This document shows, piece after piece, positions 4,979-63,690 of a stretch of DNA of 64,000 bases. Made by a program: the position numbers and the translations under genes. Position 1 is the stretch's first letter; every line of letters starts with the position of its first letter. Origin of the DNA: a virus. Under the pieces are notes generated by a model. The model ran no database searches. It was not told where the DNA came from and saw only the letters and a list, made by a program, of their open reading frames with translations. The DNA lies in the IMG/VR virus record IMGVR_UViG_3300020048_000003; one strand, 5' to 3'.

Positions 4979-5010
4979 AAGCCGTTCTAATAACGGCTTT
5001 TTTTATACAT
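4979..5010. terminator. bidirectional rho-independent terminator
   Basis: AAGCCGTT-CTAAT-AACGGCTT flanked by A- and T-runs, between convergent genes. Confidence 0.6.
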
Positions 5011-6187: not shown

Positions 6188-6262
6188 AAGTAAGTATTTT
6201 TTATGGAATAAAAAAATGAAAATGAAATTTTAATATATACCGTAAAACTATAATTATTTATT

Positions 6263-11577: not shown

Positions 11578-14500
11578 TTAGAAAATATAACGTACTCCAA
11601 CTTGTGCTCCCCAAGTACTTTGAGTTGAAAGTACAGGTGTGAATGTTGATGTTGGTAATGAAGAACCAGTATAATTCATTTGATAATGAGGAATACCATC
11701 TGTTCCAGTTTTACTCATTTTTAATAAAGTAATATCATATGAACCTAAGGTTTGTTTTTGATAGATACCCCAACTTGAGTTTAGTAAATTTCCAACATTT
11801 AATAAATCTAAGCTTATTTGTAATGTTTGTCTTTTATTATTTTTACCTACTCCTGTAAATATATCTTGTAAAAGTTTTACATCAAATCTATTTACCCAAG
11901 GCATAATAACACCATATCTCTCAGCATATTGTCCTTTGTTTTCTGATAAGTATTCATCTTGATCAACATAAGCCCAGAAAGCAGCATTTTGTTCTTCTGA
12001 TGTAAATATTGTTTCAAATGTACCATCTGCTAATTTTTTAGTAATAGGATCAAAAATTATTTCGGACTCATCTTTAGGAATATACATAAGGTCAGCGGCA
12101 TTACCATCACCGTTCATGTCATTTGAATAGATATAATCTAAACGACCTTGGCTACTACCTTGATATACTAATGATACTGAAGTTCCTAAATGTTTAAGAT
12201 ATTCTTTATGATAAGTTACTGAACCTATAACTCTGTTAGGTACAGCGAATTGTGAATAACTTAATTCTAAAGCATTTTGACTTGCTACTGTTGGATTGCT
12301 TGCCCATGCTGATGATGCTGCGGAACCTGGATTTGAAGTAAAGTCTTTTACACCAAAGTGTGTATAAGCAATAAAGCCACTAAATCCATTTTGGAATTGT
12401 TTACTTAACTGTGCGGTTAATGAATATGAGTATCCATTTTCAATTGAAAGTTCATTAGTTAGAACCATTGCGTTGCTAACTCCTGGATTGATTTTGCGAG
12501 TAGCAGAGAAGTATCTTGGTCGCATATCTGGACCATTGAATGTTGCGGTGCTATCTTTTTGGTTTGCATTATATTGAATAACATCATTGATATTATTTGA
12601 ATACATACCTTCAAATGTTCCAACAATACCCCAAGGTAATTTAACATCAACTGCTAAATTAGTTCTCCAAACTTGTGGCATTTTGAATTTTGGATCAACA
12701 ACAGCAATAGAGCCAGGTGCAACACTTGATGGTTGACTTGGAAATAATGTTGTGTTGGATAAGTGATAGAAAGGATCTGGATTGAAAGTTAAATCTACTA
12801 ATTGAGCAGCTTTTGTAACTTCAACTGTGTTTTGTAGAGTTCCAGAATTTGTTGGTTGGTTTGTGAACCATACAAATGGTAATCTACCTGTAAAAACTCC
12901 TGAACCTCCTCGTACTTGAAGTGATTTATCTCCCTTAACATCCCAGTTAAAACTTACTCTAGGAGAGAAGGTGGGTTTGGATTCGGGCCATTTGCCAGCA
13001 TCTAATGTTAAATCTTCACCATTTAAATCTTTGAAAGTTAAATCTGTGATTGATGGATTAGGAATTAAATTATCAAAATATATTGGTAGTTCAATTCTTA
13101 AGCCTGCTGTTACTTTCAAATTATCTAAAATTTGAATTTCATCTTGTCCATAAAGAGCAGCGTAGCCAAAGGTTAATTCAGCATATCCATTTCCTGCGCC
13201 TTCATAAGGATAAGTTAGACCAAATGTAGTAGGAATTCCACCATTATAAAAATCATCCATAGATGCATATCTATAATAGCTTGTTCCATATCTTTTGTAA
13301 CTATTAGCAAAATACATTTGATCATAAGATGCACCTATTGTAAATGTGTGCATTCCCATATAATAGTTATAGTTATTAATAAAAGTTAATGTGTTATTTT
13401 TTACATCATTATCTTTTGTAAATAATTCATAACCAAATGACATGTAAGGATCTCCATCTTTATAAATATCAACAAATGGAAAAGGTGAACTGTTACTATT
13501 TCTAGTATCTTGAATTTTAGTATAAGTAAATAAGAATTTATTTGCAGATTTACCCCAAACACTATTTAATTCTGCTGATACTGAACCTACTGTATTAAGA
13601 AATCCATAATTAGAATTACTGAATGCCATAGATTTTTCTCCAATACGACCAAATGTTGAACGAGTTCCTGGTGCACTTGTTGCATTAACTTGTTGATCGT
13701 TAGTTGATTCAACATAGTTATATCTAACAGCGAATTTGTGATGTTGGTTAATATTCCAATCAATTTTTCCTAAAATTTTGTAATTATTACTTTCAAAATT
13801 TCCAAAATTTTGATAACTTCCAGCATCATATTGATATGTATTTTTGAGATAATCACTCATAACTGACATATCAGTAGCAGTTGTTCTAGAAATATAATTC
13901 GCAGCATCTGGTTCAATACCATTTTCTGGATCGCTTACACTCCAAGGAATTCCTGGATATGATGATTTTTCCTTTTCTGCGTTAAAGAATATAAATAATT
14001 TATTCTTTATAATTGGTCCTCCTACTGATGCTCCGTAACTAAGTGTACTTTGATCGGTTAGTGTTAACTCTTTATCTTCTACTTTTTTTCCATTGAAGGA
14101 TTTATCACGGAAATAAGTATAAGCGGTTCCTTTCCATTCGTTAGTACCACTTTTAGTAACAGCATTAATATTTGCACCTGTAAAATTTGACTGTCTAATA
14201 TCAAATGGTGCGACATTTACGCTAATTTCTTCAATAGCATCTAAACTAATTGGTTGTGCATCACCACCTGGTAGTGATTTTGTGCTTAGTCCGAAGTTGT
14301 TGTTGAAGTTTGCACCGTCAACTGTGATGTTATTGTATCTTCCATCACGACCTGCAAAACTGGTTCCGTTGGATTGTGGTGTCATTTTAGTGAAATCTGT
14401 AATACTTCTATTGATAGAAGGTAATGCTTTGATTTCAGCCAAATTGATGTTTGTTGATGCTCCAGTTTTATTACCATCAATTAATTGATTTTTTTGTGCT

Positions 14501-14925
14501 GTTACTTCAACACCTGTAATTTCACTGGCATTTTGAGATAGTGTTTCATTTAATCCTAGTGTTTGTCCTAAGTTTAAATTGATATTTTCCTCAACAATTG
14601 GTTTGTAGCCAACGTAGGATATGGTTAGTGTGTAAGGTCCTCCAACTTTTAAGTTAGTAATTCGGTAGAGCCCATCCACATCTGTAACTGTGCCGTATTG
14701 TGTTCCTGTTGGAACATGAACTAATACAACACTTGCACCTGGCAATGAGACTTTGTTTTCTCCATATATCTTACCACTTATACCTGAAGTGGTAACTTGA
14801 GCAAACATTATCAAACTGCTAAATGAGAACAATAGAAAAAAGATTAATCTTTTTAGGTTTTTTGTCATAGTTTTGATTTTTTTTTTGACTTCCCGCGGAA
14901 TTACGAGAGTTATCATTTTTATCAA
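11578..14925 (-). CDS. TonB-dependent outer-membrane receptor (Bacteroidetes type: CarbopepD_reg N-domain, plug, 22-strand barrel)
   Basis: Signal peptide. N-terminal domain VTTSGISGKIYGENKVSLPGASVVLVHVPTGTQYGTVTDVDGLYRI. Plug-like region. C-terminus ends ...VGVRYIF. GC is noticeably higher than flanking DNA. Confidence 0.85.
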   Translation of the reverse strand: MIKMITLVIPREVKKKIKTMTKNLKRLIFFLLFSFSSLIMFAQVTTSGISGKIYGENKVSLPGASVVLVHVPTGTQYGTVTDVDGLYRITNLKVGGPYTLTISYVGYKPIVEENINLNLGQTLGLNETLSQNASEITGVEVTAQKNQLIDGNKTGASTNINLAEIKALPSINRSITDFTKMTPQSNGTSFAGRDGRYNNITVDGANFNNNFGLSTKSLPGGDAQPISLDAIEEISVNVAPFDIRQSNFTGANINAVTKSGTNEWKGTAYTYFRDKSFNGKKVEDKELTLTDQSTLSYGASVGGPIIKNKLFIFFNAEKEKSSYPGIPWSVSDPENGIEPDAANYISRTTATDMSVMSDYLKNTYQYDAGSYQNFGNFESNNYKILGKIDWNINQHHKFAVRYNYVESTNDQQVNATSAPGTRSTFGRIGEKSMAFSNSNYGFLNTVGSVSAELNSVWGKSANKFLFTYTKIQDTRNSNSSPFPFVDIYKDGDPYMSFGYELFTKDNDVKNNTLTFINNYNYYMGMHTFTIGASYDQMYFANSYKRYGTSYYRYASMDDFYNGGIPTTFGLTYPYEGAGNGYAELTFGYAALYGQDEIQILDNLKVTAGLRIELPIYFDNLIPNPSITDLTFKDLNGEDLTLDAGKWPESKPTFSPRVSFNWDVKGDKSLQVRGGSGVFTGRLPFVWFTNQPTNSGTLQNTVEVTKAAQLVDLTFNPDPFYHLSNTTLFPSQPSSVAPGSIAVVDPKFKMPQVWRTNLAVDVKLPWGIVGTFEGMYSNNINDVIQYNANQKDSTATFNGPDMRPRYFSATRKINPGVSNAMVLTNELSIENGYSYSLTAQLSKQFQNGFSGFIAYTHFGVKDFTSNPGSAASSAWASNPTVASQNALELSYSQFAVPNRVIGSVTYHKEYLKHLGTSVSLVYQGSSQGRLDYIYSNDMNGDGNAADLMYIPKDESEIIFDPITKKLADGTFETIFTSEEQNAAFWAYVDQDEYLSENKGQYAERYGVIMPWVNRFDVKLLQDIFTGVGKNNKRQTLQISLDLLNVGNLLNSSWGIYQKQTLGSYDITLLKMSKTGTDGIPHYQMNYTGSSLPTSTFTPVLSTQSTWGAQVGVRYIF

Positions 14926-16354: not shown

Positions 16355-16678
16355 TTATTTTTTATTTTTTGTTTCTAAAAAGGTGTACGCTGCAATTATT
16401 TTCTGCATTTGAGCAGTAGTATTAACGCCTGGATTTTTATCTGGATGCCATTTCATAGCCATTTTGCGATATGCTTTCTTTATTTCAGCAAATGTAGCGC
16501 CAACTTCAATACCAAGAATAAAATATGGGTCATCCACACCAAGAACTGTTACCGCTTCTTCATAACCCATTCTTTGATTAAATGCTTTTTTCCATTGTGA
16601 AGCATCACCATAACCATCAACTGAAGGATTATAAGTTTTATATCCATCCATAAATCCCTTTTTTGCTTTTGTTGTCAT
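16355..16678 (-). CDS. J-domain (DnaJ-like) co-chaperone
   Basis: [33 protein letters not shown] with the HPD motif. Confidence 0.75.
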
Positions 16679-17935: not shown

Positions 17936-18709
17936 CTATTTTTTACTCCAAGTTTCAAATTCTTTTACTATTTCTAATAATTTTGGATCCAATTTTTCAT
18001 ATGCTTCATCTGAAATTGAGGTTGGTATTCCATAAAATGCTTGTGCTATTCCACCAGCCATACAACCTGTTGTATCGCAATCACCACCTAACCATATAGT
18101 TAGACGAATACAATCTTCGTAATTTTTACTTTCCAAGAAACATACAATTGCTTCTGGTACAGAACCTTGACAAGTTTCTTGAAACCAATAATCTGGTTTC
18201 CGTTCGGCAATAGTTGTATCAAGGTCGTAATCAAAATTATTTTCAATATAATTTTTTATTTCTTGTTTACCTTGTCCAGTTCTTGCTAAGAAGATAGCAG
18301 CGGCAATTGCTTGTGCGCCTTTAATTCCTTCTGGGTGATTATGTGTAACTTCGGCACTTTTCTTTGCCATTTCCAATGTTTTTTCCAATGTATCATAGGC
18401 AAATCCAATTGGACTAATTCGCATTGCGGAGCCATTACCAAAACTATTGTATGGTTGTGGATCTGAGAAATCTATCCATTTTTTGAACATTCCGCCATAT
18501 CCAGCATTTCGGAACATTCTTGCATATTTTTGATATGTTTCTGTGAAATCTAAGTTGTGCATTATACAATCTGCTGTTGCTACGGATAAAACTGTATCAT
18601 CAGTAAATTTAGATTTTTCAGAAAAAAGTGGAAAATCATTTTTTTCACCTTTCCAATTTTTGAATTCATATACGGAGCCTATAATATCTCCTGCGATTGC
18701 ACCTATCAT
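17936..18709 (-). CDS. ADP-ribosylglycohydrolase (DraG/ARH family)
   Basis: MIGAIAGDIIGS...TDDT...GGDCDTTGCMAGGIAQAFYG match the family signatures. Confidence 0.7.
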   Translation of the reverse strand: MIGAIAGDIIGSVYEFKNWKGEKNDFPLFSEKSKFTDDTVLSVATADCIMHNLDFTETYQKYARMFRNAGYGGMFKKWIDFSDPQPYNSFGNGSAMRISPIGFAYDTLEKTLEMAKKSAEVTHNHPEGIKGAQAIAAAIFLARTGQGKQEIKNYIENNFDYDLDTTIAERKPDYWFQETCQGSVPEAIVCFLESKNYEDCIRLTIWLGGDCDTTGCMAGGIAQAFYGIPTSISDEAYEKLDPKLLEIVKEFETWSKK

Positions 18710-21677: not shown

Positions 21678-22685
21678 TTATTGAAAAGTTTGATTATTTA
21701 TTACAGGATTTTCGTTTATATTAAGTACATTTACTGTTACTGTTGCTGAACTTGATAGAGCCGGTGTACCATTATCAATTACTTTAATCACTAATGCGAA
21801 AGATGGTGTTGTTTCATAATCAAGTTGAGAAGGATTAGTTACAAGTAATGCACCTGTTGCGGCATTTATAGAGAATGTGCCACCCGTATTTCCAGACTCA
21901 ATTGAGAAAGTTTTTGTTTGTCCAGCATCAGGATCAGTGGTGACAATAGTTCCAACTAATGTGGCATTTGCAGAATTTTCATTCACATTAAATGTTTGAT
22001 TATTAATAACTGGTGTTTCGTTTACATTAAGTATATTAACTGTAATTGTTGCTTGTGCAGATAGTGGTACAGTTGCATTGTCTTGTACTTTTACAACAAT
22101 AGGAATGGATTGAACTGTTTCATAATTCAATATTGGAGAATTAAAAACTGTTAATACTCCTGATGTTGCGTTTATTGCAAATACTCCTCCAGTGTTTCCT
22201 GATACGATAGAATATGTTTTTGTTTGTCTTGCTTCTGGGTCCGTAGCAACTACGGTACCAATTACTGTACTATTTGATGAATTTTCATTTATACTAAATG
22301 TTTGAGGTGCAATACTTGGCACAGTATTATATTCATTTAATGTGATAAGATAAGTAGAAAATTTAGGATCTGGTAGACCATTTGTTGTACCATTATCTAA
22401 TAGTTTAAGTGTGAAAGTAAATGTAGTTAATGTACTATTATTTATTGCTGTAGCGTCATTTACAAATATATCACCAAGTGTATTTTTCCATAGTGTCTGT
22501 GTTTCTACTATACTCCAAGTAATTGTGTTATTTTCAGGATCACAACCTGTAAAATGTTCAACTTGTAAGTTGGCTGTTACTGGTTTATAGAAATTTATTG
22601 GTTTTACTACATATGTAGGACATATAGTTTGACTGAAGCCAATGAATGACATTAGCATTAAGATGATTGTAAATAATTTTTTCAT
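21678..22685 (-). CDS. secreted cadherin-like repeat protein
   Basis: Signal peptide. Tandem ~95-aa repeats containing SGNTGGVFAINATSGVLTV..NYETVQS, a cadherin-like L.YE signature. Confidence 0.55.
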   Translation of the reverse strand: MKKLFTIILMLMSFIGFSQTICPTYVVKPINFYKPVTANLQVEHFTGCDPENNTITWSIVETQTLWKNTLGDIFVNDATAINNSTLTTFTFTLKLLDNGTTNGLPDPKFSTYLITLNEYNTVPSIAPQTFSINENSSNSTVIGTVVATDPEARQTKTYSIVSGNTGGVFAINATSGVLTVFNSPILNYETVQSIPIVVKVQDNATVPLSAQATITVNILNVNETPVINNQTFNVNENSANATLVGTIVTTDPDAGQTKTFSIESGNTGGTFSINAATGALLVTNPSQLDYETTPSFALVIKVIDNGTPALSSSATVTVNVLNINENPVINNQTFQ

Positions 22686-26667: not shown

Positions 26668-27576
26668 ATGGATAAATTAGGATACGCTTGTATAAACACA
26701 ACATTAGCAGAAAAAGATATTACTGTTAATAGAGGTATGGTTCAGAGAACATTTAAGACTAAAGGTCTAAATTATGTTTCTGAACTTATCATTCTTAACG
26801 TTCAAGATTTTATATCTATAATTGAATGGAATGAAAAAAATAATATCAAGAATTATAGAATGAGTTCTGATATGTTTCCGTGGTTCACTCACTATAATTT
26901 AGAAGATTTGCCTCAGTATCAAAAAATAAAATTTTTGATGAAAACTGCTGGCAATTTAGCAAAAAAGTATAATCATAAATTAAGTTTTCATCCAGGTCCT
27001 TTTAATTGCTTGGCATCACCAAATCCTGATGTTGTTAAGAAAACTATTTTTGAATTAAATCAACATTCAAATTTAATTGACTTATTAGAACTTGATGAAA
27101 GTCCGTTTTATAATATTAATATTCACATAGGAGGCGTTTACGGTGATAAAATAGGTACGATGGAGAGATTTATTGAAAATTTTAACCTACTCTCAGAACC
27201 CACCAAAAAGCGGTTAACTTTAGAAAATGATGATTCAAATGGTTATACTGTAAAAGATTTATATACAGTTCATCAACGAACTAATATTCCAATTGTTTTT
27301 GATACATTACATTACTATTGTAATCCAGGTGATATGAGTTATGAAGATAGTTTTAATCTTGCATACTCTACTTGGAATAGTATTATTCCTGAAATACATC
27401 ACGCATCAAGCAAGAAGTTATATGAAGATGTAAAGGCAACTATTAAAACACATGCTGATTACATATTTGATGAAATAAATACTTGTGGAAAAGATGTTTA
27501 TGTTACTATTGAAAGTAAGGCAAAAGAATTAGCTTTACTGAAATATAGAAAAGATTATCATAAATTATATTCATAA
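26668..27576 (+). CDS. uvdE: UV damage endonuclease (UvdE/UvsE family)
   Basis: MDKLGYACINTTL...NYRMSSDMFPW plus His-rich C-terminal barrel residues typical of UVDE. Confidence 0.65.
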   Translation: MDKLGYACINTTLAEKDITVNRGMVQRTFKTKGLNYVSELIILNVQDFISIIEWNEKNNIKNYRMSSDMFPWFTHYNLEDLPQYQKIKFLMKTAGNLAKKYNHKLSFHPGPFNCLASPNPDVVKKTIFELNQHSNLIDLLELDESPFYNINIHIGGVYGDKIGTMERFIENFNLLSEPTKKRLTLENDDSNGYTVKDLYTVHQRTNIPIVFDTLHYYCNPGDMSYEDSFNLAYSTWNSIIPEIHHASSKKLYEDVKATIKTHADYIFDEINTCGKDVYVTIESKAKELALLKYRKDYHKLYS

Positions 27577-29882: not shown

Positions 29883-29951
29883 ATCTTATAATAGTTTTAA
29901 TTAAATGCAAAGTTAAAAAATTATTTAGAATAAAAAAATTATATATATGAA

Positions 29952-30287
29952 ATGAAACATTTACAAATTTATGAAAATTTCATAACTGATTTATTTAAAA
30001 AAAAACAAAAGAGTAAACTTCATCAGGCACTATATCCTGATAATAATAATTTTTTATCTGTAGTTAAAATTAAATATCAGATAGGAGAAATATTAAAAAG
30101 AGTAGAAGATGGAAGATTAGGAAAAGTTCTTGCACATGAGCCTGGTATAACTAATGATAATCAGTTAGAAATAGTATATATGATTAAATTTGGTAATGAA
30201 CTTAATGGATATTTTAAAAAGGATCTTGAAGTACCAACAGAAGAAGAAAAAGAATTTTTTGAAACTATAAACAAATATAATTTATGA
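29952..30287 (+). CDS. family B cassette protein (N-terminus MKHLQIYENF, C-terminus NKYNL)
   Basis: Conserved termini. The stop overlaps the next start as ATGA. Confidence 0.5.
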   Translation: MKHLQIYENFITDLFKKKQKSKLHQALYPDNNNFLSVVKIKYQIGEILKRVEDGRLGKVLAHEPGITNDNQLEIVYMIKFGNELNGYFKKDLEVPTEEEKEFFETINKYNL

Positions 30288-30892
30288 GACATTTACAAAT
30301 ATATGAAAATTTTTCAACTGATGAGATGCTTTTAGAAAGCAATAGGAATATATATCGTTCTATACAAGATAAAACTATTAAAAAATTAGCTTTAAATTTA
30401 TATTTTGTTGGTACATTTCAAATGGGAGTAACTATATTATATCCAATTGTTGAAGCACTTGTGAATAATTCTGATATACCACAAATAATAACACCTGAAC
30501 ATATTGTTTTAATGACAATATTTTCAATTGCTCAAATTTTAAATGTGAATACAGAAGATGTTAAGAAAATTAAAACAGAGTTGGAAAAAGATAATCTTGT
30601 GGAGGTTACAGAAAAGGTTAAAATATCATTACAATCTATATACAAAATATTTAGTTACGTGGCTAAGAGATTTAATAAAATAGTAGATGTTTTTACTGAT
30701 GTATTGGCATATGTAGCATTAGGTACGCCTTTTTATCTTGCGTTATTAGAAATGATATCTAAGGAAGGATTGAATTTAGATACATTACCTCAAAAAGTTC
30801 TTGTTTTTGGTACTGGTGTTGCAATTTTTGCATTTAAAAGTTTTGCTGAGGCAATTGTGAATATCATCAAAAATAAAATGAATAAAAATTAA
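30284..30892 (+). CDS. family B cassette protein with a membrane region (N-terminus MRHLQIYENF)
   Basis: Conserved N-terminus. Several hydrophobic helices. Confidence 0.5.
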   Translation: MRHLQIYENFSTDEMLLESNRNIYRSIQDKTIKKLALNLYFVGTFQMGVTILYPIVEALVNNSDIPQIITPEHIVLMTIFSIAQILNVNTEDVKKIKTELEKDNLVEVTEKVKISLQSIYKIFSYVAKRFNKIVDVFTDVLAYVALGTPFYLALLEMISKEGLNLDTLPQKVLVFGTGVAIFAFKSFAEAIVNIIKNKMNKN

Positions 30893-30939
30893 AAACATAT
30901 CTAAGTTTTTTTCATATATAAAGAAAAAATTAGATTTTT

Positions 30940-32133
30940 GTGGTTGTTCAGAGTGATTTAGAGTACTTATTACAGTTTGTTTCAAAAGATTTTCAATATT
31001 TAACTCAACAAGTAAAGATACCGTATAAAGGTATAAATTTGAAATGTAATTATCTTATTAATATAATACATGAACTTTTAATAAAGTACTATTTCAGTAA
31101 TAATACAGAACTAAAATTCAATTTATCATCCACTATTCTCAGAAAAAGATACGGTGAACATTATAATTATTATATAGAGTATTTATGTAATAATGGATTT
31201 ATGAGTTTAGTTTCTAAATATTATGTTGGTAAAAAAACTAATACTTATAAATTAGATTCTAAATATGTTTATGATGTAATAAGATGGAAAAATTGTGATA
31301 ATTTTTTATTGAAAAAAACAAAAGATAGATTTGAAACATCTATAACTGAACTTGGTGAAAGTTCTATATTGCCATCAATAAGAAAAAAATTAGTAACATC
31401 ACTAGGTAATATAGAAATTGATTATGATGGTGCATTTAAATATCTTAATGAATTGAAAAATAGTAATTTAATAGATGATTCAAAATATTATAAGAATTTA
31501 ATATCAATTGAAAATATAAATATTAATGTTAATAATATTTATTTTAATTTTGATGATTTTGGAAGATTTCACACCAATTTTACTATTCTAAAAAAGGAAA
31601 TTAGAAATAAATTTTTAACCATAAATAATGAAATGCTTGCTGAAGTTGATATTAAAAATTCGCAACCATTATTTTTTGCTGTTTATTTGAAAGAAGAGTT
31701 ATTTAATGAGATAAATGAAGATACAAAAAAATATTTTGATATAGTAAAATCAGGATTACTTTATGATGATATAATTGAAAATTCGGAATTAACAAATAGA
31801 AGTGAGGCTAAAGAAATGATGTATAAGGTTTTATTTGGTAATAATAAGTCAAATAAGAAAGAAAACGCTATTTTTAAAAAATTATATCCATCAGTATATG
31901 AGTATATTTGTGAATATAAGGATTTAAGAGATAATTATAAAGAATTGGCACATGATCTTCAACGAAAAGAGAGCAATTTTATATTTAATAATGTTATAAA
32001 AGAGATATTTGAAACTTATCCTGATGTAACATTATTTACGGTTCATGATTCAATAATATTTTCTAAATCTTATCAAGAAAGAATTGAAGTTATATTTAAT
32101 AAACATTTTCAAAATTTAATAAAAATTTTTTAA
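30940..32133 (+). CDS. hypothetical protein
   Basis: ORF track (397 aa; N/K-rich). Confidence 0.5.
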   Translation: MVVQSDLEYLLQFVSKDFQYLTQQVKIPYKGINLKCNYLINIIHELLIKYYFSNNTELKFNLSSTILRKRYGEHYNYYIEYLCNNGFMSLVSKYYVGKKTNTYKLDSKYVYDVIRWKNCDNFLLKKTKDRFETSITELGESSILPSIRKKLVTSLGNIEIDYDGAFKYLNELKNSNLIDDSKYYKNLISIENININVNNIYFNFDDFGRFHTNFTILKKEIRNKFLTINNEMLAEVDIKNSQPLFFAVYLKEELFNEINEDTKKYFDIVKSGLLYDDIIENSELTNRSEAKEMMYKVLFGNNKSNKKENAIFKKLYPSVYEYICEYKDLRDNYKELAHDLQRKESNFIFNNVIKEIFETYPDVTLFTVHDSIIFSKSYQERIEVIFNKHFQNLIKIF

Positions 32134-32143
32134 TATATAGAAT

Positions 32144-33088
32144 ATGAAATTTTTAAAAAGTTTTGAGGAAACTTTATATAAGAAGCATCGTCCGAGTGAA
32201 ATGTCAAGAGAAGAGTTACTAGGACATATTTTACACTTATATGGTTCTATTCCTTTATATAAACAAAAATCACAAACAGTCTTAAAAAAGATATTATATG
32301 GCAAATTTCCAGTATTTGGTGAAGATGTACATTTAGATCATAAGAATTCTCATGATAAAGTTAGATTTGTTGATTATTTTGATTCTTTATTAAATGCTAA
32401 AGAAGTTAGAGGACATAATTTTGAAGGATTTATTGCTGGATTATATGATGGTGAGTTATCTAAACCTGGTGAAAAATATGATATAACAATAGATGGTAAA
32501 ACATGGAGTTTAAAGTTTGTTGATAATCCATCAAAAGCACCAGAAATAGGTAGTTTCTTAGCGCCTATAATAGAAAATGGTTTACAAGCAACTGTTAAGG
32601 AGAAACAAGGATTAACAAAGATATTTCAGAGTAAAAATAATGATTTAAAAAAACAACTCTTTGATATAGTATCAAAAGGTATAACAGGTGGTTGGTTGAT
32701 TGCTTATCCTATGAAAACCAAAAAAGAATTTTATATACAAATTCATATTATAGATTTGGTTGATATGGAAAATTTATTAATGCAGGGTTATAGCACATCA
32801 CCAAAAGGTGGCTTAAAGTCTTTATATTCTCTTGCTTTAAGTGCAAGGTATAAAACTTTTGAAGATGTTAAAAATTATAAAATTATAATTCCTGAAATAT
32901 CAGATGATGAATTAAGAGAAATTTATATTTCTGATAATGAAGAAATTTGGGGTACAGAAGTTTTTGGTAAAAAAACATATAAAATAAGACCAGATGTTTT
33001 AAAGTATATTAAGAAAAATTCAAAAGATATTGGTAAAAAACTAATGGACTTTGAAGAACCTACAAAATTTGATGATCTACCATTTTAA
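32144..33088 (+). CDS. hypothetical protein
   Basis: ORF track (314 aa). Confidence 0.5.
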   Translation: MKFLKSFEETLYKKHRPSEMSREELLGHILHLYGSIPLYKQKSQTVLKKILYGKFPVFGEDVHLDHKNSHDKVRFVDYFDSLLNAKEVRGHNFEGFIAGLYDGELSKPGEKYDITIDGKTWSLKFVDNPSKAPEIGSFLAPIIENGLQATVKEKQGLTKIFQSKNNDLKKQLFDIVSKGITGGWLIAYPMKTKKEFYIQIHIIDLVDMENLLMQGYSTSPKGGLKSLYSLALSARYKTFEDVKNYKIIIPEISDDELREIYISDNEEIWGTEVFGKKTYKIRPDVLKYIKKNSKDIGKKLMDFEEPTKFDDLPF

Positions 33089-33684
33089 TCTTCAAATGTA
33101 TTTTTTAATCTCTCCAATTTAAATTTTCTTAGAGCAACTTTTACTTTATATCTTTGAAAGAAATCAGTTTCAAAGTTATCTTTTGCATTGACAAATGCTT
33201 GTTCTATTATATTACCATCTTTATCAATAATTTGATAAGATTCTTCTACTTTTATGTGTGATTTTCCTCTTATTATTTCTTCTTTTATTCCAAAGGTGTT
33301 TATTTTAGGACCAGGTTCATCTTCTGTGAAAAACACCCCAGCAAAATAATTCATGTTGTTAGACTTGAACATACCATTTATTATATTTCCATATTCAAAT
33401 GTTATTGAAAATGGTTTAGGTTGTATAACTTTTTTATATGCAGAAAAGAAAATTTCAAAATTTGGTTGATAATTATAAGTGCAATATACAGTTTCATCAA
33501 TGTCTAAATCATTGAATTTTATATATTTTAAATCAAATCCAATATCATCAAATTTTTTAAGTAAAATTCCATAATTGATACTAGAAAATTGATATTTTAT
33601 TTTTTTTGAAATTAAAAAACTGTAATCAAATTTAATTTCTGATCCATAATAATGAAATTGTATATGTATAGTATCGTGATACAT
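33085..33684 (-). CDS. hypothetical protein
   Basis: ORF track. Confidence 0.45.
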   Translation of the reverse strand: MYHDTIHIQFHYYGSEIKFDYSFLISKKIKYQFSSINYGILLKKFDDIGFDLKYIKFNDLDIDETVYCTYNYQPNFEIFFSAYKKVIQPKPFSITFEYGNIINGMFKSNNMNYFAGVFFTEDEPGPKINTFGIKEEIIRGKSHIKVEESYQIIDKDGNIIEQAFVNAKDNFETDFFQRYKVKVALRKFKLERLKNTFED

Positions 33685-34031
33685 TATTTAGACATTTGTA
33701 CTAATGCGTTATCAATAAGTCTTTTGGATGCTTTGCTCCATTCAACAAAAAAGTTATTCTTTTCAAATTCTTTAACTGTAGTCATAAGATTTTCATCTTC
33801 AGGAATACGAATATAATCCTCTATAATAGAATCGCTTTTAATTTTTTCGTATTTCTTCATATCTTCAGTATATTTATTCTTTAATTCTGAATAAATATCA
33901 AGAACACCATCTATATCCGAATTTGGATTGATTTTTTGAACTTCTTCAAAAACTGGTTCGGAAGGTTTTGGTGCTACTCTACGATTAAAGTAGAGTACTA
34001 ATTCAAATTTTTCGGTATAGTTATAGTCCAT
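33684..34031 (-). CDS. hypothetical protein
   Basis: ORF track. A class-1 promoter lies at 34053-34066. Confidence 0.45.
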   Translation of the reverse strand: MDYNYTEKFELVLYFNRRVAPKPSEPVFEEVQKINPNSDIDGVLDIYSELKNKYTEDMKKYEKIKSDSIIEDYIRIPEDENLMTTVKEFEKNNFFVEWSKASKRLIDNALVQMSK

Positions 34032-34085
34032 ATTTTTACTTTTATTTGTTAATGCAAAAGTACGGAAAATTATCGGATTAAAAAA

Positions 34086-34409
34086 TTATAAATTATATTT
34101 ATTTGCTTCCATTTCTATATCTAATTGTTCTAGATATTCTTCTGGTAGAAATACTTCAAATCTGATTGCCTTGTTGTCTAGTAAAAATTTATACTCAAAA
34201 TCATTAAAATCATGATAAAATTTTTGAATATTCTTTTTTTCTAAAATTCGTGCATATTTAATAACAATATTGAGCATACCTTGATTTTCATAAAATAAAA
34301 CATTATCTGCTTCATATTTTTTCAATATATAATGATAATATTTAACGTATTTTTTGTTAAATAACTTATATTCAATGCTTAATGCTTCAAATTGTTTAAC
34401 GTGTTTCAT
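34086..34409 (-). CDS. family B cassette protein (MKHVKQFEAL ... ANKYNL)
   Basis: Conserved termini. Confidence 0.5.
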   Translation of the reverse strand: MKHVKQFEALSIEYKLFNKKYVKYYHYILKKYEADNVLFYENQGMLNIVIKYARILEKKNIQKFYHDFNDFEYKFLLDNKAIRFEVFLPEEYLEQLDIEMEANKYNL

Positions 34410-35205
34410 TTTCTAATATCATTTTTAAATGTGTTGGTAGTTCTAAATCTATATCAAAATCTCTTTTTATTCTTTCCTTCATGTATGTGAAAGTGTAATG
34501 TTTATAATATAATTTTGACCAATTTGAAGGTATTTTTTTATTTAATTCTTCTATTGTTATTGGTAAATAATTTTCATGTAATTCTCTTGACCAATTTTCA
34601 ACATAAGGATATTTTAATAACCAATGTAAAAGAGTTCTATAATTATCAATAGGACCCCAATATTGTTCAAATTCTTTTAATTGTTTAGGATCAGCTTTAT
34701 CTCTTATTATTTTAGTGAAAACTGGACTAAATTTCATGTGTTTTAATGATGGAATCATATCCCTTACTATAATATACTTGAATGTATCAATAAATACTTG
34801 ATCATTCCAAAATTCTCTAATACTTTTTGATGTGCCATATGAATAAACTTCATGAATAACTGATGATAAATATAATGCTGGTGTTTCATATTTATCTGTT
34901 TCTTCTTTTACTAATTCCCAATCATTTGTGAATAAAATATCAGACTTTTCATTCTTCAAAATATTTATCATTCTATCGTCTAAATCATAACCTATTAATT
35001 TTATATCAGGATTTATTTCGTGTATCTTTTTGAGTATGAAACCATTAGCACAACCAAAATCTACAATACAATCTGGTTGAATTTTATTTAGAAAAAACAA
35101 TTTTGATCCTAATCCTTTTTCCATTCTAGATAAATATAAATCTAAATTTGGAATAGGTTGAGCATCAATACTTTCAGTTACTATAAAGTCATTATAAGAT
35201 TTCAT
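34396..35205 (-). CDS. class I SAM-dependent methyltransferase
   Basis: Motif I IVDFGCANGF. Confidence 0.5.
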   Translation of the reverse strand: MKSYNDFIVTESIDAQPIPNLDLYLSRMEKGLGSKLFFLNKIQPDCIVDFGCANGFILKKIHEINPDIKLIGYDLDDRMINILKNEKSDILFTNDWELVKEETDKYETPALYLSSVIHEVYSYGTSKSIREFWNDQVFIDTFKYIIVRDMIPSLKHMKFSPVFTKIIRDKADPKQLKEFEQYWGPIDNYRTLLHWLLKYPYVENWSRELHENYLPITIEELNKKIPSNWSKLYYKHYTFTYMKERIKRDFDIDLELPTHLKMILENETR

Positions 35206-35561
35206 AAATTATATTTTTTTGCATTTCTTCTTAGTTCAATCCATTCGTAAAGTTTAACTGATTCATTAAATTCCATATGAATATAAGAAATTCTATCATA
35301 TGTTGTATCGTGTTCGTCAACAATCTCATCATAAAATTCTACCATTGAATCTATATCATCATATTCATCTAATTGTTCTAATATAGAATCATATCCTTCT
35401 TTTTTACATGCAAAATAAACTTTATTTGCTATAAAATTAAAAGCATCAGTATAATTATCAAATAACCATCTATAATTACTATATCCATCACCAATTCTCT
35501 CAAACGAATAGATATGAGGTTTTTCAGATTCTAGATTTTCGTTAAATTTTATAATTTTCAT
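35202..35561 (-). CDS. family B cassette protein (MKIIKFNENL ... AKKYNL)
   Basis: Conserved termini. Confidence 0.45.
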   Translation of the reverse strand: MKIIKFNENLESEKPHIYSFERIGDGYSNYRWLFDNYTDAFNFIANKVYFACKKEGYDSILEQLDEYDDIDSMVEFYDEIVDEHDTTYDRISYIHMEFNESVKLYEWIELRRNAKKYNL

Positions 35562-35914
35562 AAATTGTATTTTTTTGCTACTTTATTAAGTTCTTTATCT
35601 TCTATCCATTTTTTATATTCTCCTGGTGATCTCCACATTGGAGCATAATTTTTTTGACCACAATTATCACATATCCATTCTGGTGGTTGCATTCCACCTT
35701 TTGGTATTGGTGTTAATTTATAACTATCACATTTAGTACAAATATAATATCTATCACCAAATACGGTGTCATATAGATAAGGATTAAAATTATCTTCAGG
35801 TTGTTCTTGTTTAGTTAAATAATTTCCTTTCGCATTATACAATTCACCTGTACTCCAATTCTTTTTAAATTTAGGTTTCTTTTTGAAGAACTCATAGATT
35901 TTTACGTGTTTCAT
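35558..35914 (-). CDS. family B cassette protein with a zinc ribbon (MKHVKIYEFF ... AKKYNL)
   Basis: CTKCDS...CDNCGQ. Confidence 0.5.
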   Translation of the reverse strand: MKHVKIYEFFKKKPKFKKNWSTGELYNAKGNYLTKQEQPEDNFNPYLYDTVFGDRYYICTKCDSYKLTPIPKGGMQPPEWICDNCGQKNYAPMWRSPGEYKKWIEDKELNKVAKKYNL

Positions 35915-36291
35915 TATAAGTTATATTTATTTGCGATTCGTCTAGTAGGATCAGTATCTTCTATATCTTGATTTAAATTTGAATTTTTTTCTATTTCTTC
36001 TTGTTTTTTAGCAATACTTTTCAATTCTTTCCAATATTTTTTAGAAAATTCATAACGAGTAATTGTATCTCCTTGTGATACAGATACAAAATATTGATTA
36101 GAAATTGCATTATCATTATAAAAACAAAAATACCTTTTATTATCTATTTTAAATCTATATCCAATTTCGTCTTCAATTTCAATTTGTATATTTTCATCTT
36201 TTAAAATTTCTATAATGTTTGACATTATTGGATCACCTATTTTTGGTTTATCTAAACCAAACAATTCGTTAATTTGGAGTATGTGTTTCAT
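35914..36291 (-). CDS. family B cassette protein (MKHILQINELF ... ANKYNL)
   Basis: Conserved termini. Confidence 0.5.
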   Translation of the reverse strand: MKHILQINELFGLDKPKIGDPIMSNIIEILKDENIQIEIEDEIGYRFKIDNKRYFCFYNDNAISNQYFVSVSQGDTITRYEFSKKYWKELKSIAKKQEEIEKNSNLNQDIEDTDPTRRIANKYNL

Positions 36292-36294
36292 ATT

Positions 36295-36735
36295 TTATAA
36301 ATTATATTTTTTGATATCCTCTCTTCTTTGAATAACTTCTCTTGTTATTCTTTTACCTTCATCATCAACACCTCTTTTTTTATACTTATTAATAAGTTCT
36401 ACAATCCAAGGTTCTAAACTTCTACCACCATTACCTTCAACTTCACTTCTAAGTTCTTTTGGTAACCAAATATGATATAGTTTAGTATCTTGTTGAAATC
36501 TTGATCTCATTTCTAACATGGTCATAGCAGCTACACTATTTGAGTCTGCTTGTATTCTTACCATATTTTCAATATCCAATCCTTTTTTAAATAATTTTTT
36601 TACTGGAATAAAGGTTTCAGATGCAAGAAAGATGTAAAAATCATGATCTTCACTTAATGGATTTTCTGTTAATAAATCTCCTAAAAGTTCTATTTTTTCT
36701 TCTGTTTTTGATTCAAATGTTTTTAAATGTTTCAT
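36295..36735 (-). CDS. family B cassette protein (MKHLKTFESK ... KKYNL)
   Basis: Conserved termini. Confidence 0.5.
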   Translation of the reverse strand: MKHLKTFESKTEEKIELLGDLLTENPLSEDHDFYIFLASETFIPVKKLFKKGLDIENMVRIQADSNSVAAMTMLEMRSRFQQDTKLYHIWLPKELRSEVEGNGGRSLEPWIVELINKYKKRGVDDEGKRITREVIQRREDIKKYNL

Positions 36736-37262
36736 TATAAGTTATATTTTTCTGATTCTAGAAAGAATTCAAATTCACTTTTTGTTAAATATTTTATAAA
36801 GTTTTTTATTTCTTCTATCGTATTAATTTTATAAAAATTTACTCCATTTTTAAATTCTTCTGATGTTATTTTTTGAAAATTGTTTGCTTTTTCACATACA
36901 TATACTAAAAAATCTGCAATATTTTTTTCTATTTCTGATATTTTTATTGGATAAATATTATCTTTTATAAAAATTTTTAATAATATTTTATTATCATTTG
37001 TTTTTAGAAAATCAATGGTATTTAACTTTAACATTATATAATATAAACTTTTTCCATCAAGTGGATTATCTTTCATCTTAACGGTCATATTATTTACAGA
37101 AAAATTAAAATCTTTACCTTTTGGCTTTTTTAATTTTGCAAATAATTCTAATTCATCAAGAAAACTTTTTGTTGAATTTACTAATAATTCAACATTTTTT
37201 TTACTTGTTACTGAATCTTTATTAAAAAAATCAAAAAATTCAAATGTTTTTAAATATTTCAT
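36735..37262 (-). CDS. family B cassette protein (MKYLKTFEFF ... SEKYNL)
   Basis: Conserved termini. Confidence 0.5.
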   Translation of the reverse strand: MKYLKTFEFFDFFNKDSVTSKKNVELLVNSTKSFLDELELFAKLKKPKGKDFNFSVNNMTVKMKDNPLDGKSLYYIMLKLNTIDFLKTNDNKILLKIFIKDNIYPIKISEIEKNIADFLVYVCEKANNFQKITSEEFKNGVNFYKINTIEEIKNFIKYLTKSEFEFFLESEKYNL

Positions 37263-37798
37263 AAATTGTATGATTTTATATCTTTTAAGAAGTTAATTGC
37301 TTCTTCAAGTTCTGTTAATTCGCTATTATATATTTTTATTTTTTCATTTTTATTATCATGTATATTTAATAGAATATATTCATCTTGTCCATAAGTATTA
37401 TCTGGTACATGTGATTGTGGTAATCCCATTACGTTATAGAAACTTGCCGAAAAAATAAAATTTAACTCATAATGAAATTTCATATGTAAAAATGCACTTT
37501 TTACTTTGCCAATATAAGAAGAATATCCCCACTTATCTTTTTTCATATTCCATTCAATATATTTACCTTCAATAAGAGGCTTAAATGCTTTATCTCTAAA
37601 TTCTTCTGCTATCATACCTTTTTTACCCCAAGCATTTATATCTTTTGAATCTTTAAATGTTATCATCTTCTTTTCTATAATTTGATCTCTATACGTATTG
37701 TAATCTTTCCATAGCATACTTAAATCAACTTCTCTAAAACTTTCATTTTCAAGAAACTCTCTAATAGTTTGATTTTCATATGGTTTAATATATCTCAT
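37259..37798 (-). CDS. family B cassette protein (MRYIKPYENQ ... KSYNL)
   Basis: Conserved termini. Confidence 0.5.
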   Translation of the reverse strand: MRYIKPYENQTIREFLENESFREVDLSMLWKDYNTYRDQIIEKKMITFKDSKDINAWGKKGMIAEEFRDKAFKPLIEGKYIEWNMKKDKWGYSSYIGKVKSAFLHMKFHYELNFIFSASFYNVMGLPQSHVPDNTYGQDEYILLNIHDNKNEKIKIYNSELTELEEAINFLKDIKSYNL

Positions 37799-38082
37799 AA
37801 GTTATATTTATCTGCTTCCATTTCATAGTCTGGTACTAATCTCATTTCATATGCTGTTTTCCATCCACCACCAGTTTTTTGTACACCACCTCTATTATTT
37901 ATATCTTCACAAAAATAAGAATTATCTCTAAATCCACTCAATGTTACAATAAAAAAAGTATTTAATTCTTCACCTCTTTTATCCAAAACTTTTACAATAT
38001 CACCATTTTTAAATTTTTTAGTAGCATTAATAACAGTATAAGATGCATCAGTTTTTGTTTCGTATGTTTTAATATGTTTCAT
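37795..38082 (-). CDS. family B cassette protein (MKHIKTYETK ... ADKYNL)
   Basis: Conserved termini. Confidence 0.5.
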   Translation of the reverse strand: MKHIKTYETKTDASYTVINATKKFKNGDIVKVLDKRGEELNTFFIVTLSGFRDNSYFCEDINNRGGVQKTGGGWKTAYEMRLVPDYEMEADKYNL

Positions 38083-38417
38083 AAGTTATACCTATTTGCT
38101 ATTATTTTTAAACCTAATTCGGAATTCTCTATTTCTTCTGGTGTTAGTTTTCTAACAAAATATATTTCTTCAAATTTACAATCATCAATTTGAATTTTTT
38201 GAACACCTAAAATAGTTTCAATCATAACATCGTAATAAATATTATAACCTTTTTGTTTTTTTCTTTTTTCACCTAATTTTAATATCCATTTAATATAACA
38301 ATCAATTTCATTATCGTGCATCATTAGTTTTACTAAATCACCAACACGTACAAAGTCATTATTTTCACATAAAATTTCATAATTATCAAACATTTCAAAC
38401 TTTTTTATATACTTCAT
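38079..38417 (-). CDS. family B cassette protein (MKYIKKFEMF ... ANRYNL)
   Basis: Conserved termini, with codon-level variation (AGG TAT AAC TTA). Confidence 0.5.
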   Translation of the reverse strand: MKYIKKFEMFDNYEILCENNDFVRVGDLVKLMMHDNEIDCYIKWILKLGEKRKKQKGYNIYYDVMIETILGVQKIQIDDCKFEEIYFVRKLTPEEIENSELGLKIIANRYNL

Positions 38418-38794
38418 AAGTTATATTTCTTTGCATTTTTATAAATATCTGTATCATTCATATATTCAACAAAGTATTCAATTTGTTCTTTATTAAGAGA
38501 AATTTTTTCAGATTCTTCACCATTATCCCAACTAATATATACACTAATATTATCGTCATCTTTATTTACTCTATATACATCAAAAGCATCTTCATATTCA
38601 GTATAATTTTTATTATCTTCCTCTAATACTTTTGGTAATAAGGTAGGATTATAAAATAAAAATTCTTCCATTCTTCTAAATAAATTTTGTTCTCTAACAA
38701 ACATATCAACCCTTTCATCTAAAAATTTTGATAATTTACTTGCTGACCATCCAACTTCTAAAGTACTTGATTCATAATTTTTTAGATATTTCAT
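38414..38794 (-). CDS. family B cassette protein (MKYLKNYESS ... AKKYNL)
   Basis: Conserved termini. Confidence 0.5.
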   Translation of the reverse strand: MKYLKNYESSTLEVGWSASKLSKFLDERVDMFVREQNLFRRMEEFLFYNPTLLPKVLEEDNKNYTEYEDAFDVYRVNKDDDNISVYISWDNGEESEKISLNKEQIEYFVEYMNDTDIYKNAKKYNL

Positions 38795-39651
38795 AGTTCC
38801 ATTAATTTGTTTGTATATAGATAATACATAAATGCTGTCATGATTTTTTCACGACTCCATTTATCAATCATTATGGGTATATTTAAATATTCTTTATATT
38901 TATTTGAGTACTCATCTTCAAATTTTATTAAATATTCGTTGAATATTGTTAATGAATCTGCTTTAACTATATCACTATAAAGCTTATATGGATCCGTTTC
39001 TTTTTGTTTCTTTTTTAATTTATCAATATCTTTTGCTCTATCAACATTTAAGTATAAAATATCACTAATTTGTTGATCTGTCAATCCTCTTTTTACATTT
39101 TTTAAGTGATTAACAATAATATTTGTGATAATATTAGATTTTCTACCATACATTTTTTTAACAATTCTAGTAAAATTTTCTGCAAATTCTTTTTTGAAAG
39201 TATTTGTAATATCTTCAAAGTTTTCTTCTTCTTTTTTTAATTTTCTTGTTCCTGAAAATTCATGTAGCCAATTACCAGATATTAATTGATAATTTTTATA
39301 GCCTCTCTCAATCTTTTTTGTGATTTCTGTGAATGTTGATTGAATTCTTTCTACTCTTTTCCATTGTTCATTTCCAAAATCATCTTTTTCAGTTAATAGA
39401 TATGTTTCAACATAATATTTTCTATCATAAGAAAATAGAATAAATAATTTATCTTGATGAATAGATATGATTAATGTATTTTTTGATCTACGTAAAGCAG
39501 AAACAGCATCTTTTTTATATGTTAAATTTTTCCATTGTGCATCATCAGAAATAGCATAATTCTTTTGTATGCTTTTCATTACTGAATATGGTACACCTAT
39601 TTCTAATAATGATGTTTTTTCAAATAATTTGAAAGATAATATAAATTTCAT
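38791..39651 (-). CDS. family B-like protein, first gene of the minus-strand array (MKFILSFKLFE)
   Basis: N-terminal similarity only. Confidence 0.45.
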   Translation of the reverse strand: MKFILSFKLFEKTSLLEIGVPYSVMKSIQKNYAISDDAQWKNLTYKKDAVSALRRSKNTLIISIHQDKLFILFSYDRKYYVETYLLTEKDDFGNEQWKRVERIQSTFTEITKKIERGYKNYQLISGNWLHEFSGTRKLKKEEENFEDITNTFKKEFAENFTRIVKKMYGRKSNIITNIIVNHLKNVKRGLTDQQISDILYLNVDRAKDIDKLKKKQKETDPYKLYSDIVKADSLTIFNEYLIKFEDEYSNKYKEYLNIPIMIDKWSREKIMTAFMYYLYTNKLMEL

Positions 39652-39826
39652 ATTTTATATATATTAAAATGGTAATATGATTTTTATTTTTGGTTTGATA
39701 AAAAATGAGTTTTTTTATTTAATATATAATAGAAAAAATAATAAGGCATATTACAAAAAAATATCTTTTACTGATGGCGAAGAGGTAGTCATATAAAGAC
39801 CTTATAAAAAAATAATTAAAAGAAAA

Positions 39827-62685: not shown

Positions 62686-63042
62686 ATGAAATATTTTAAG
62701 TCGTTTGAAGATTACTCTAATTACTCAAGTAATAAGTTAAAATTTCCAGATAAAAATTTCCAGATGGCATTTATGGAGGATATGATGGATGTTTATATGA
62801 ATCCTGAATCTTTTTATAAATTTTATTTCAAAGGTGGCTTAACAAGAGAAATGATGTTAGAGTATATTGATCTTTTTATAAAAGTAAGAGGAGGTAATTT
62901 TTTAGGAGACCTTTTTGATAGAGAAATTTTCAGAGACTTATTACTTTTTAAATTTTTTAATGTACCATTAAGTGATATAGATTCAAATATTGAACCATTT
63001 CTAACTGATTTTGAAGTAGATACAAATAAATATAATCTCTAA
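62686..63042 (+). CDS. family B cassette protein (MKYFKSFEDY ... TNKYNL)
   Basis: Conserved termini. Confidence 0.5.
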   Translation: MKYFKSFEDYSNYSSNKLKFPDKNFQMAFMEDMMDVYMNPESFYKFYFKGGLTREMMLEYIDLFIKVRGGNFLGDLFDREIFRDLLLFKFFNVPLSDIDSNIEPFLTDFEVDTNKYNL

Positions 63043-63374: not shown

Positions 63375-63404
63375 ATTAAATAAAACTGTAAATAAATATA
63401 ATTT

Positions 63405-63689: not shown

Positions 63690-63690
63690 T

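Follow-up and report, generated by a model that had tools for sequence, protein, structure and literature searches.

Paired terminal peptides on unrelated proteins of a huge phage are conserved as peptides and may act as sorting or docking handles

Introduction

What could make neighboring genes with unrelated protein bodies begin and end alike? The question is raised by IMG/VR record IMGVR_UViG_3300020048_000003, a 64,000-nucleotide stretch of virus DNA analyzed here at its full length (the window), in which tightly packed arrays of genes encode proteins sharing a short N-terminal peptide (N-tag) and a C-terminal peptide (C-tag). Together the arrays specify many accessory proteins of a huge phage, unrelated to one another and for the most part small, acidic and soluble. 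A sequence-only reading of the window had drawn attention to the main array; here we define the tags, determine the level at which they are conserved, and weigh the explanations for them.

Results

The N-tag follows the pattern M-[KR]-[HYF]-[ILV]-[KQ]-x-[FY]-E (MKHLKTFESF, for example). Alignment from the C-terminus revealed the C-tag as a module of ~15 residues, Phi-E-E-Phi-E-Phi-K-K-N-[ATS]-[NK]-K-[YF]-N-[LI] (for example, EEYELKKDANKYNL), and not the four residues recognized earlier. Both recur in the window well beyond expectation: the N-tag DNA pattern ATGARRYAYNTNMAANNNTWYGAR was matched 13 times against 0.00 expected, and the C-tag-plus-stop pattern TAYAAYTTATRA 14 times against 1.07 expected. 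In a six-frame scan of the window, every N-tag match coincided with the start of an open reading frame (ORF), and every YNL-stop match closed a tagged gene, except one at 27558–27569 that looks like a chance occurrence. As a non-circular check of the N-tag, residues were counted in 260 ORFs picked by their last three residues alone. Lys2 was found in 200 of them, Tyr/His3 in 182, Ile/Leu4 in 196, Lys5 in 193, Phe/Tyr7 in 201 and Glu8 in 182; Asp8 occurred in fewer than four, and position 6 was the sole variable position. At the opposite end, Lys occupied position −4 in 95 of 102 tagged proteins, though it lies outside the selection pattern.

The bodies between the tags have little in common. 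After trimming of the tags, all-against-all BLASTP gave E > 0.1 throughout, which upholds the initial impression of mutually dissimilar bodies. The 102 tagged proteins have a median length of 119 amino acids and a median body isoelectric point (pI) of 5.4 and are soluble, with transmembrane-like segments in one to three of them, the product of window gene 30284–30892 included. Among the same 102 proteins, Pfam identified five with Ank repeats, one HAD protein and one methyltransferase, and PHROGs returned unannotated families only; Pfam searches of the window array genes yielded nothing save a weak methyltransferase match on an untagged gene. The tags themselves are not captured by any Pfam or PHROG model. 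AF2 models of the 146-residue protein (36295–36735) and the zinc-ribbon protein (35558–35914) reached pLDDT values of 87 and 76, respectively, and differ in topology. In both models the N-tag is a short low-confidence helix (pLDDT 58 and below 50) detached from the body, and the C-tag forms the end of a confident C-terminal helix followed by a three-residue tail. The 146-residue model found no similar fold in PDB or BFVD, and a profile search of PDB sequences gave no meaningful match. With no homology across bodies, differing Pfam domains and differing AF2 topologies, no single paralogous family could be recognized.

How the tags are joined to the bodies was most evident in the zinc-ribbon family. 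A linker of 0–22 residues directly follows the N-tag in this family; one homologue without an N-tag retains 64% identity over the body; and in two others a second SH3-like body is fused behind the first, with a single N-tag and a single C-tag at the extreme ends of the fused protein. No covariation between N-tag and C-tag within proteins rose above chance (mutual information with within-locus shuffles; maximum z = 2.9, 192 pairs). An origin from a polyprotein or fusion was rejected: no ORF carried an in-frame ...YNL-MK... junction, and the frame relation between neighbors was not constant. The linker, fusion, internal-junction and covariation results therefore indicate that the tags do not belong to a common fold but act as portable modules of the termini; they are add-ons to unrelated folds, needed only at the extreme ends.

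We then compared the peptide with the DNA that encodes it. Codons at conserved tag residues track background usage (His CAT/CAC 15/8; Ile ATA/ATT 14/14; Leu TTA/CTA/TTG 15/6/5), in keeping with the earlier observation that the peptide varies in its codons from copy to copy. Synonymous divergence (pS) was 0.55–0.69 in tag codons versus 0.45–0.57 in unrelated body codons, which bears out the claim that selection acts on the peptide and not on a DNA junction. Tag replacements are conservative as protein (L/I/V, F/Y, E but not D), and Asp is excluded at position 8 though GAT is as AT-rich as GAA. In the family of the 146-residue protein, for which 54 metagenomic homologues were retrieved (almost all full-length, on contigs of up to 531 kb), 52 orthologues at ~50% mean identity keep Glu8 invariant and Asn145 at ≥90%, and the tags are among the most conserved positions. 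Both tags are under purifying selection as peptides, so the ends resemble a shared address label or docking handle.

The amino acids of the C-tag, moreover, change in concert within each genome. The C-tag variant is genome-specific, both for Tyr/Phe at −3 (p = 5e-13) and for Leu/Ile at −1 (p = 4e-8), with one lineage using K-F-N-L throughout and others K-Y-N-I. Synonymous divergence of tag codons was the same within a locus (0.71) as between loci (0.74), so the concerted change does not stem from gene conversion. If the tags co-evolve with a common trans-acting reader, amino acids are expected to change in concert while the DNA is not homogenized; gene conversion carries no such expectation.

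A weaker constraint at the level of RNA or translation initiation is layered on the junctions. Third-base A at codons −1, −6 and −8 and the Asn codon AAC at −2 are commoner when a start codon lies within 6 nt, so the junction also serves re-initiation of the next gene. The overlaps and the raised third-base A near downstream starts fit termination-reinitiation; most of the conservation concerns amino acids and is kept where genes do not overlap, as in at least 49 C-tagged genes that keep the tag with no start codon within 6 nt downstream. Separately, C-ending codons of Tyr, His and Phe are in excess at tag residues (Tyr TAC 11 versus 4.0 expected; Phe TTC 6 versus 1.2), and selection for accurate decoding at critical residues may underlie this.

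The tags extend well beyond the window. An exact search of IMG/VR with junction DNA returned 33 and later 56 stretches, on contigs of up to 330 kb. These 56 tag-rich metagenomic phage loci span 577 kb and encode more than 250 distinct tagged ORFs. Among their 934 unique ORFs of at least 60 residues, both tags occur on 152, the N-tag alone on 19 and the C-tag alone on 98, and the odds ratio for joint occurrence of the tags is 54 (p = 3e-84); the loci were retrieved via the junction itself, so these proportions are not genome-wide. GenBank phages gave no DNA match to the whole array and no tblastn match to the 112-residue body. A junction scan of bacterial genomes produced four matches, three of them by chance. 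The fourth lies on a 5.7-kb contig of 25% GC (L080, CAYVSY010000054.1) binned with a metagenome-assembled genome of gut Muribaculaceae, where ...TKANKYNL* overlaps MKYLKT.... This contig is probably mis-binned phage DNA, a hint that gut samples, too, contain tag-bearing phages.

Cassettes turn over against a stable background. Three relatives (L036, L037 and L001) keep the order gp32, Ig-like gene, 286-residue head gene, ..., 146-residue gene, ..., 115-residue and 199-residue genes, and the tagged cassettes between these anchors differ among them by losses, by new arrivals and, for two cassettes, by opposite order. The 286-residue head gene of the main array is a conserved anchor adjoining a Big_2-like gene and gp32, found at 75% identity in the equivalent position in L036 and L037. 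It was also considered as a widespread receptor candidate and discarded, having only one close relative in IMG/VR. DUF723 proteins are encoded at the end of or within tagged arrays (L084, 14463–15263; L037, 1805–2725), one of them with the variant N-tag MITKFQLYE; these genes may be mobile or endonuclease-like and tied to cassette turnover.

Within the window, the ORF listing and inspection of the junctions resolved the main array (34086–39651, minus strand) into 12 consecutive, tightly packed genes, where the sequence-only reading had counted thirteen; the array is real, and tagged genes are more numerous in and past the window than that reading had noted. Independent gene calls on two further assemblies of the same phage gave identical coordinates. 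Ten of the 12 genes end in [KRS]-Y-N-L, eight start with M-[KR]-[HY]-[ILV]-K-x-[FY]-E and two have variant starts (MKHILQINE and MKIIKFNE). Neither the first gene nor the gene at 34396–35205 fits the earlier picture of an unbroken tagged run. The junctions comprise seven ATGA overlaps, as described before, and in addition two TAATG overlaps, a gap of 3 nt and an overlap of 14 nt; the frame relation between neighbors varies from junction to junction.

In the order of transcription, the array opens with the 286-residue head gene (38791–39651), which has a degenerate N-tag (MKFILSFK) and no C-tag. Six cassettes with both tags follow on the minus strand: 38414–38794 (126 residues, MKYLKNYE ... NAKKYNL); 38079–38417 (112 residues, MKYIKKFE ... 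IANRYNL, with the complete C-module RKLTPEEIENSELGLKIIANRYNL); 37795–38082 (95 residues, MKHIKTYE ... EADKYNL); 37259–37798 (179 residues, MRYIKPYE ... IKSYNL); 36735–37262 (175 residues, MKYLKTFE ... SEKYNL); and the 146-residue gene at 36295–36735 (MKHLKTFE ... IKKYNL). Beyond these, a 125-residue cassette (35914–36291) combines the variant N-tag MKHILQINE with the C-tag ANKYNL; the 118-residue zinc-ribbon cassette (35558–35914) reads MKHVKIYE ... AKKYNL; and a 119-residue cassette (35202–35561) pairs the C-tag AKKYNL with MKIIKFNE, a variant that recurs in other loci. An untagged, SAM-methyltransferase-like gene of 269 residues (34396–35205; weak Pfam match) sits inside the array and has an 82% identical ortholog in L037. 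The last tagged cassette (34086–34409, 107 residues, MKHVKQFE ... ANKYNL) retains its C-tag despite the next gene starting 54 nt downstream.

On the plus strand, two tagged genes had been noted, and both do carry the N-tag. The first (29952–30287, 111 residues, MKHLQIYE ... INKYNL) bears both tags; the second (30284–30892, 202 residues, MRHLQIYE) has no C-tag and contains hydrophobic segments resembling transmembrane helices. A third gene (32144–33088, 314 residues, MKFLKSFE) likewise has the N-tag only. Its C-terminus, ...MDFEEPTKFDDLPF, is very like the acidic tip at the C-terminal end of bacterial SSB, which in E. coli ends ...MDFDDDIPF; by this likeness the protein may mimic the SSB tail or compete with it.

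A second array, on the plus strand, begins at 62686 and, followed past the window end on the source contig, amounts to 15 consecutive tagged genes. Its first gene (62686–63042, 118 residues) reads MKYFKSFE ... TNKYNL. In the next (63072–63408, MKYIKLFE), the called ORF stops early at 63374 (...HIRRFRRI*) because a perfect C-tag module, LEEYELNKTVNKYNL / VITSEDLEEYELNKTVNKYNL*, sits in the +1 frame downstream of the A-run AGAAAAAAG (~63325). Possible explanations of the frame break are slippage on the A-run, a faulty assembly, and a 1-nt indel or pseudogene. A 94-residue cassette (63405–63689, MKYIKTYE ... LNNYNL) and one leaving the window (63689–64000, MKYLQIYE) complete the portion seen here. 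Far from the arrays, a lone minus-strand gene of 129 residues (5003–5392) ends in IDADKYNV and may belong to the C-tag set as an outlier.

Many operons on both strands, tagged arrays included, have a TTAATATATA-like element 4–23 nt upstream of their first gene, for example at 6230, 32130, 39658 (minus), 42361 (minus), 42396, 50103 and 62671. Its total count is not above chance; its placement before start codons is striking, and the element may be a phage promoter or short-leader signal. Read most simply, the main array is a single operon headed by such an element. As a tag-specific signal TTAATATATA was ruled out, since it precedes many untagged operons as well.

The window has a G+C content of 23–33% and derives from an AT-rich phage contig at least 286 kb long; a protein on record from a contig of 286,618 bp matches one array protein at 100% identity. 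The window gp32 is closest to those of the 634–735-kb "uncultured phage" genomes LR756501–LR756504 and LR745206 (43–47% identity), the largest genomes of Al-Shayeb et al. 2020, all of which were placed in the Mahaphage clade, with those above 634 kb predicted to replicate in Bacteroidetes (PMC7162821). Judged by gp32, the tag-bearing phage is related to Mahaphages and, more broadly, to T4. A less strict form of the N-tag core, [ILVF]-[KRQ]-x-[YF]-[EDN] at residues 3–6, is enriched at N-termini near gp32 in LR756504 (p = 7e-5) and LR756501 (p = 3e-6); its offset from the initiator Met is variable, and no C-tag accompanies it. At 13190–13754 of LR756504 (L038), Mahaphage genes start MSIKKFNEFLQE and MRNIKKFNEF. 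The Mahaphage peptide K-K-F-N-E-F-L-Q-E comes near K-T-Y-Q-E-F-I-A-E of the T4 capsid-targeting sequence (CTS) and contains an L-x-E site.

The host lies probably in the Bacteroidota, a placement that we infer. Besides the Mahaphage relationship, the window encodes a 1115-residue SusC-like outer-membrane protein (11578–14925, minus strand; CarboxypepD_reg plus TonB-dependent beta-barrel, E = 1e-46). Proteins built in this way typify the Bacteroidota; for a phage the protein is unusual cargo, and it hints at such a host. Other minus-strand genes encode a 107-residue J-domain protein with an HPD motif (16355–16678) and an ADP-ribosylglycohydrolase (17936–18709, E = 4e-37). A TPR-repeat protein is also encoded, its placement at 6263–6901 (plus strand) resting on a weak local phmmer match. 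Further window proteins include a ferritin, a 2OG-Fe(II) oxygenase, an acyl-carrier (PP-binding) protein, a DNA ligase, SprT-like and GIY-YIG proteins, a cadherin-domain protein (21678–22685) and several DNA methyltransferases.

Discussion

If the tags are handles, what might they serve? In the arrangement that we propose, each protein would run from the N-tag through a variable linker and a variable body to a C-terminal helix that leads into the C-tag. The N-tag would form an amphipathic helix of 8–9 residues, M-K-[YH]-[IL]-K-x-[FY]-E, and the C-tag would close the chain as ...[ATS]-[NK]-K-[YF]-N-[LI]-COOH. Both would be read in trans by a partner co-evolving with the phage lineage, and the tagged cargo would be sorted into the assembling prohead core in the fashion of the T4 CTS. 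A Glu-specific prohead protease could then cut the N-tag off after Glu8, and the cargo would be delivered with the DNA. New genes would enter the set by gaining tags, with rapid turnover of the arrays.

The T4 CTS, MKTYQEFIAE (PMC8442874), is sufficient in its first 10 residues, with residues 4 and 7 (Tyr4 and Phe7) serving targeting and residues 8 and 10 processing; Asp at the cleavage position blocks processing (PMC9026906). Prohead proteases of T4 and of giant phages all cut after Glu, T4 Alt carries propeptides at both ends, and giant-phage heads contain ~50 proteins (PMC5694885). The N-tag shares with the CTS its M-K start, positions 4 and 7 and the terminal Glu, and we therefore rank sorting into the prohead first, as a tentative choice in which our confidence falls short of even. 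The likeness noticed by the sequence-only reading thus goes beyond general form, to positions 4 and 7 and a strict Glu; its other part, an L/I-x-E cleavage motif, is not general. The fuller proposal is one that we entertain with greater reserve: in a clade of huge Bacteroidota phages, an N-octapeptide and K-[YF]-N-[LI]-COOH would make up a two-part address code with which a phage-encoded, co-evolving receptor directs at least 50 unrelated proteins per genome to one destination, which would be either the prohead, from which they are injected, or a compartment or hub built by the phage.

Several observations weigh against the prohead as destination. Tested as a rule, L/I-x-E fails: P3 falls on the variable position 6 and P2 is Phe/Tyr, and only a few I-Y-E members fit. 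T4 internal proteins are basic, whereas the tagged proteins are acidic, and no Pfam or PHROG match to T4 IPI, IPII, IPIII or Alt was found among the 102. One N-tagged member (30284–30892) resembles a polytopic membrane protein. At least 28 members are encoded in ~75 kb, which would make for a very long list of cargo. Next to the arrays lie replication genes (gp32, helicase, methyltransferases) and no recognizable head module; neither a head module nor a prohead protease gene was found in the window. The likeness to the CTS is a four-position pattern that could be convergent or coincidental, and the reader of the tags is itself a postulate.

The evidence for selection on the peptide and for co-evolution fits equally well if the handles are read in trans for another destination, a common cytoplasmic hub or a phage-built compartment, and this alternative, though doubtful, is the one we take most seriously. 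Candidates for such a hub would be an AAA+ protease or unfoldase (a degron or anti-degron timing early proteins), a chaperone system, a clamp- or SSB-like hub, or a phage-built compartment with import resembling that by PTS1/PTS2. Small acidic soluble proteins are typical of early host takeover or anti-defense, the Ank repeats of five members are protein-binding modules, and the location of the arrays among replication genes and the N-tag on a membrane protein would be readily accommodated. The window also encodes the J-domain and TPR proteins. TPR domains are classic readers of free C-termini, and because they often bind these, the TPR protein is a candidate, if speculative, reader of the C-tag. 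Here too the partner is postulated, and all that ties it to the TPR and J-domain proteins is that their genes share the 64-kb window; a CTS and protease explain the strict Glu and positions 4 and 7 more specifically.

An intramolecular clasp, in which the N-helix packs on the protein's own C-helix within one ancient paralogous family carrying a hypervariable or replaceable insert, appears improbable. It would account for the helical ends in both AF2 models (the C-helix confidently predicted) and for the strong co-occurrence of the tags, and many members do share an SH3-like "GDxV" body with a TPEEIE..L C-module, suggesting a core subfamily. Against it, the bodies span unrelated known folds (Ank, HAD, methyltransferase, zinc ribbon), proteins with the N-tag only (19) or the C-tag only (98) are common, and one body exists both with and without its N-tag. 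The low pLDDT of the N-tag, the variable linker before the body and the lack of N–C covariation point the same way, and a genome-specific C-tag variant is unexpected for an intramolecular contact.

Might the conserved ends instead be recombination boundaries, with the peptide a by-product? Shuffling of modules as in the promoter early stem-loop (PeSL) elements of T4-type phages had been suggested for this locus. PeSLs are intergenic DNA elements with an early promoter and a terminator stem-loop (PMC2839356, PMC4122927). The shuffling itself stands: relatives with 75–82% anchor identity differ by gain, loss and reordering of cassettes. The DNA element does not. No intergenic PeSL-type element of ~50–70 bp was found, the main-array junctions being mostly 4-nt or 1-nt overlaps or a 3-nt gap; sigma-70-like sites in the array were not enriched (75 versus 96 expected from shuffled sequence); and no terminator-like site occurred on the minus strand of the main array. 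With no intergenic space and no excess of promoters or terminators, PeSL-type elements are therefore not present. Junction DNA does repeat over 26–58 nt at 64–92% identity, and DUF723 and GIY-YIG genes lie in or near the arrays. However, synonymous sites show neither excess conservation nor within-genome homogenization, substitutions conserve the protein (L/I/V, F/Y, E not D), the C-module spans 15 residues, and the junctions offer no room for a promoter or stem-loop, so that end similarity as the driving force has little credence with us.

Least credible of all is a translation signal, whether termination-reinitiation with an optimal start region in a non-Shine-Dalgarno host or an RNA operator for a RegA-like repressor: ATGA or TAATG overlaps at most junctions, the bases favored near start codons (third-base A at −1, −6 and −8, AAC at −2) and AAA as the usual second codon (Lys2 being widespread in untagged genes too) would suit it, but conservation follows codon structure with third positions free, the Asp codon GAT is shunned at position 8 for all its AT-richness, the first genes of arrays and genes with no neighbor downstream are tagged all the same, the Mahaphage N-core shifts its register relative to AUG, and the C-tag differs in its amino acids from genome to genome.

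Were the tags to prove sorting or docking signals, every cargo or client protein of this uncultured clade of huge phages could be listed from sequence alone: hundreds of unknown proteins, likely including host-takeover and anti-defense factors. The peptide pair would offer a portable handle for loading foreign proteins, and the genome-specific C-tag variants a computational route to the receptor, through covariation across complete genomes. The virus would recruit new genes into a functional class by ~25 residues of tag, which would explain the rapid turnover of cassettes. Should the address code hold, it would be a viral sorting system with the logic of PTS1/PTS2 or the T4 CTS on a far larger scale. 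In the literature searched, no earlier description of such dual terminal tags was found, nor, even if the destination is not the capsid, of dual tags on unrelated proteins under peptide-level selection. We class the finding with terminal sorting or docking peptides on unrelated cargo; it would lie further from what is known if the destination is not the capsid.

Compared with known systems, the tags stand closest in pattern to the T4 CTS. Each is a short N-terminal leader common to otherwise unrelated, fast-evolving accessory proteins; both begin M-K, are hydrophobic or aromatic at positions 4 and 7, and end in Glu, a likeness confined to pattern. In T4, Alt undergoes processing at its two ends, and most of the tagged proteins carry a tag at each. 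The leader described here is 8–9 residues long and that of T4 10; the C-tag has no T4 counterpart of its kind; members number in the tens per genome, against 3–5 in T4; and the tagged proteins, known from genes alone, are acidic whereas T4 internal proteins are basic. The SPN3US proteins gp53 and gp54 are likewise giant-phage head proteins sharing an identical N-terminal peptide with protease sites after Glu; unlike the unrelated bodies found here, they are paralogues, with a 15-residue propeptide and A-x-E sites (PMC5694885). PeSLs resemble the tags in flanking small accessory genes of hyperplastic regions whose content is shuffled between close relatives, and differ in being conserved as intergenic DNA, where the conserved parts here are coding and kept as peptide. 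Terminal peptides also sort cargo in cellular compartments, as in the cargo-loading peptides of encapsulins, the encapsulation peptides of microcompartments, and the peroxisomal targeting signals PTS1 (a C-terminal tripeptide) and PTS2 (an N-terminal nonapeptide). These have no sequence similarity to the tags, and most tagged proteins bear both signals at once; in organization the parallel is close, since these too are short, flexible, portable peptides at the termini, separated by linkers from unrelated folded cargo and served by one receptor or shell.

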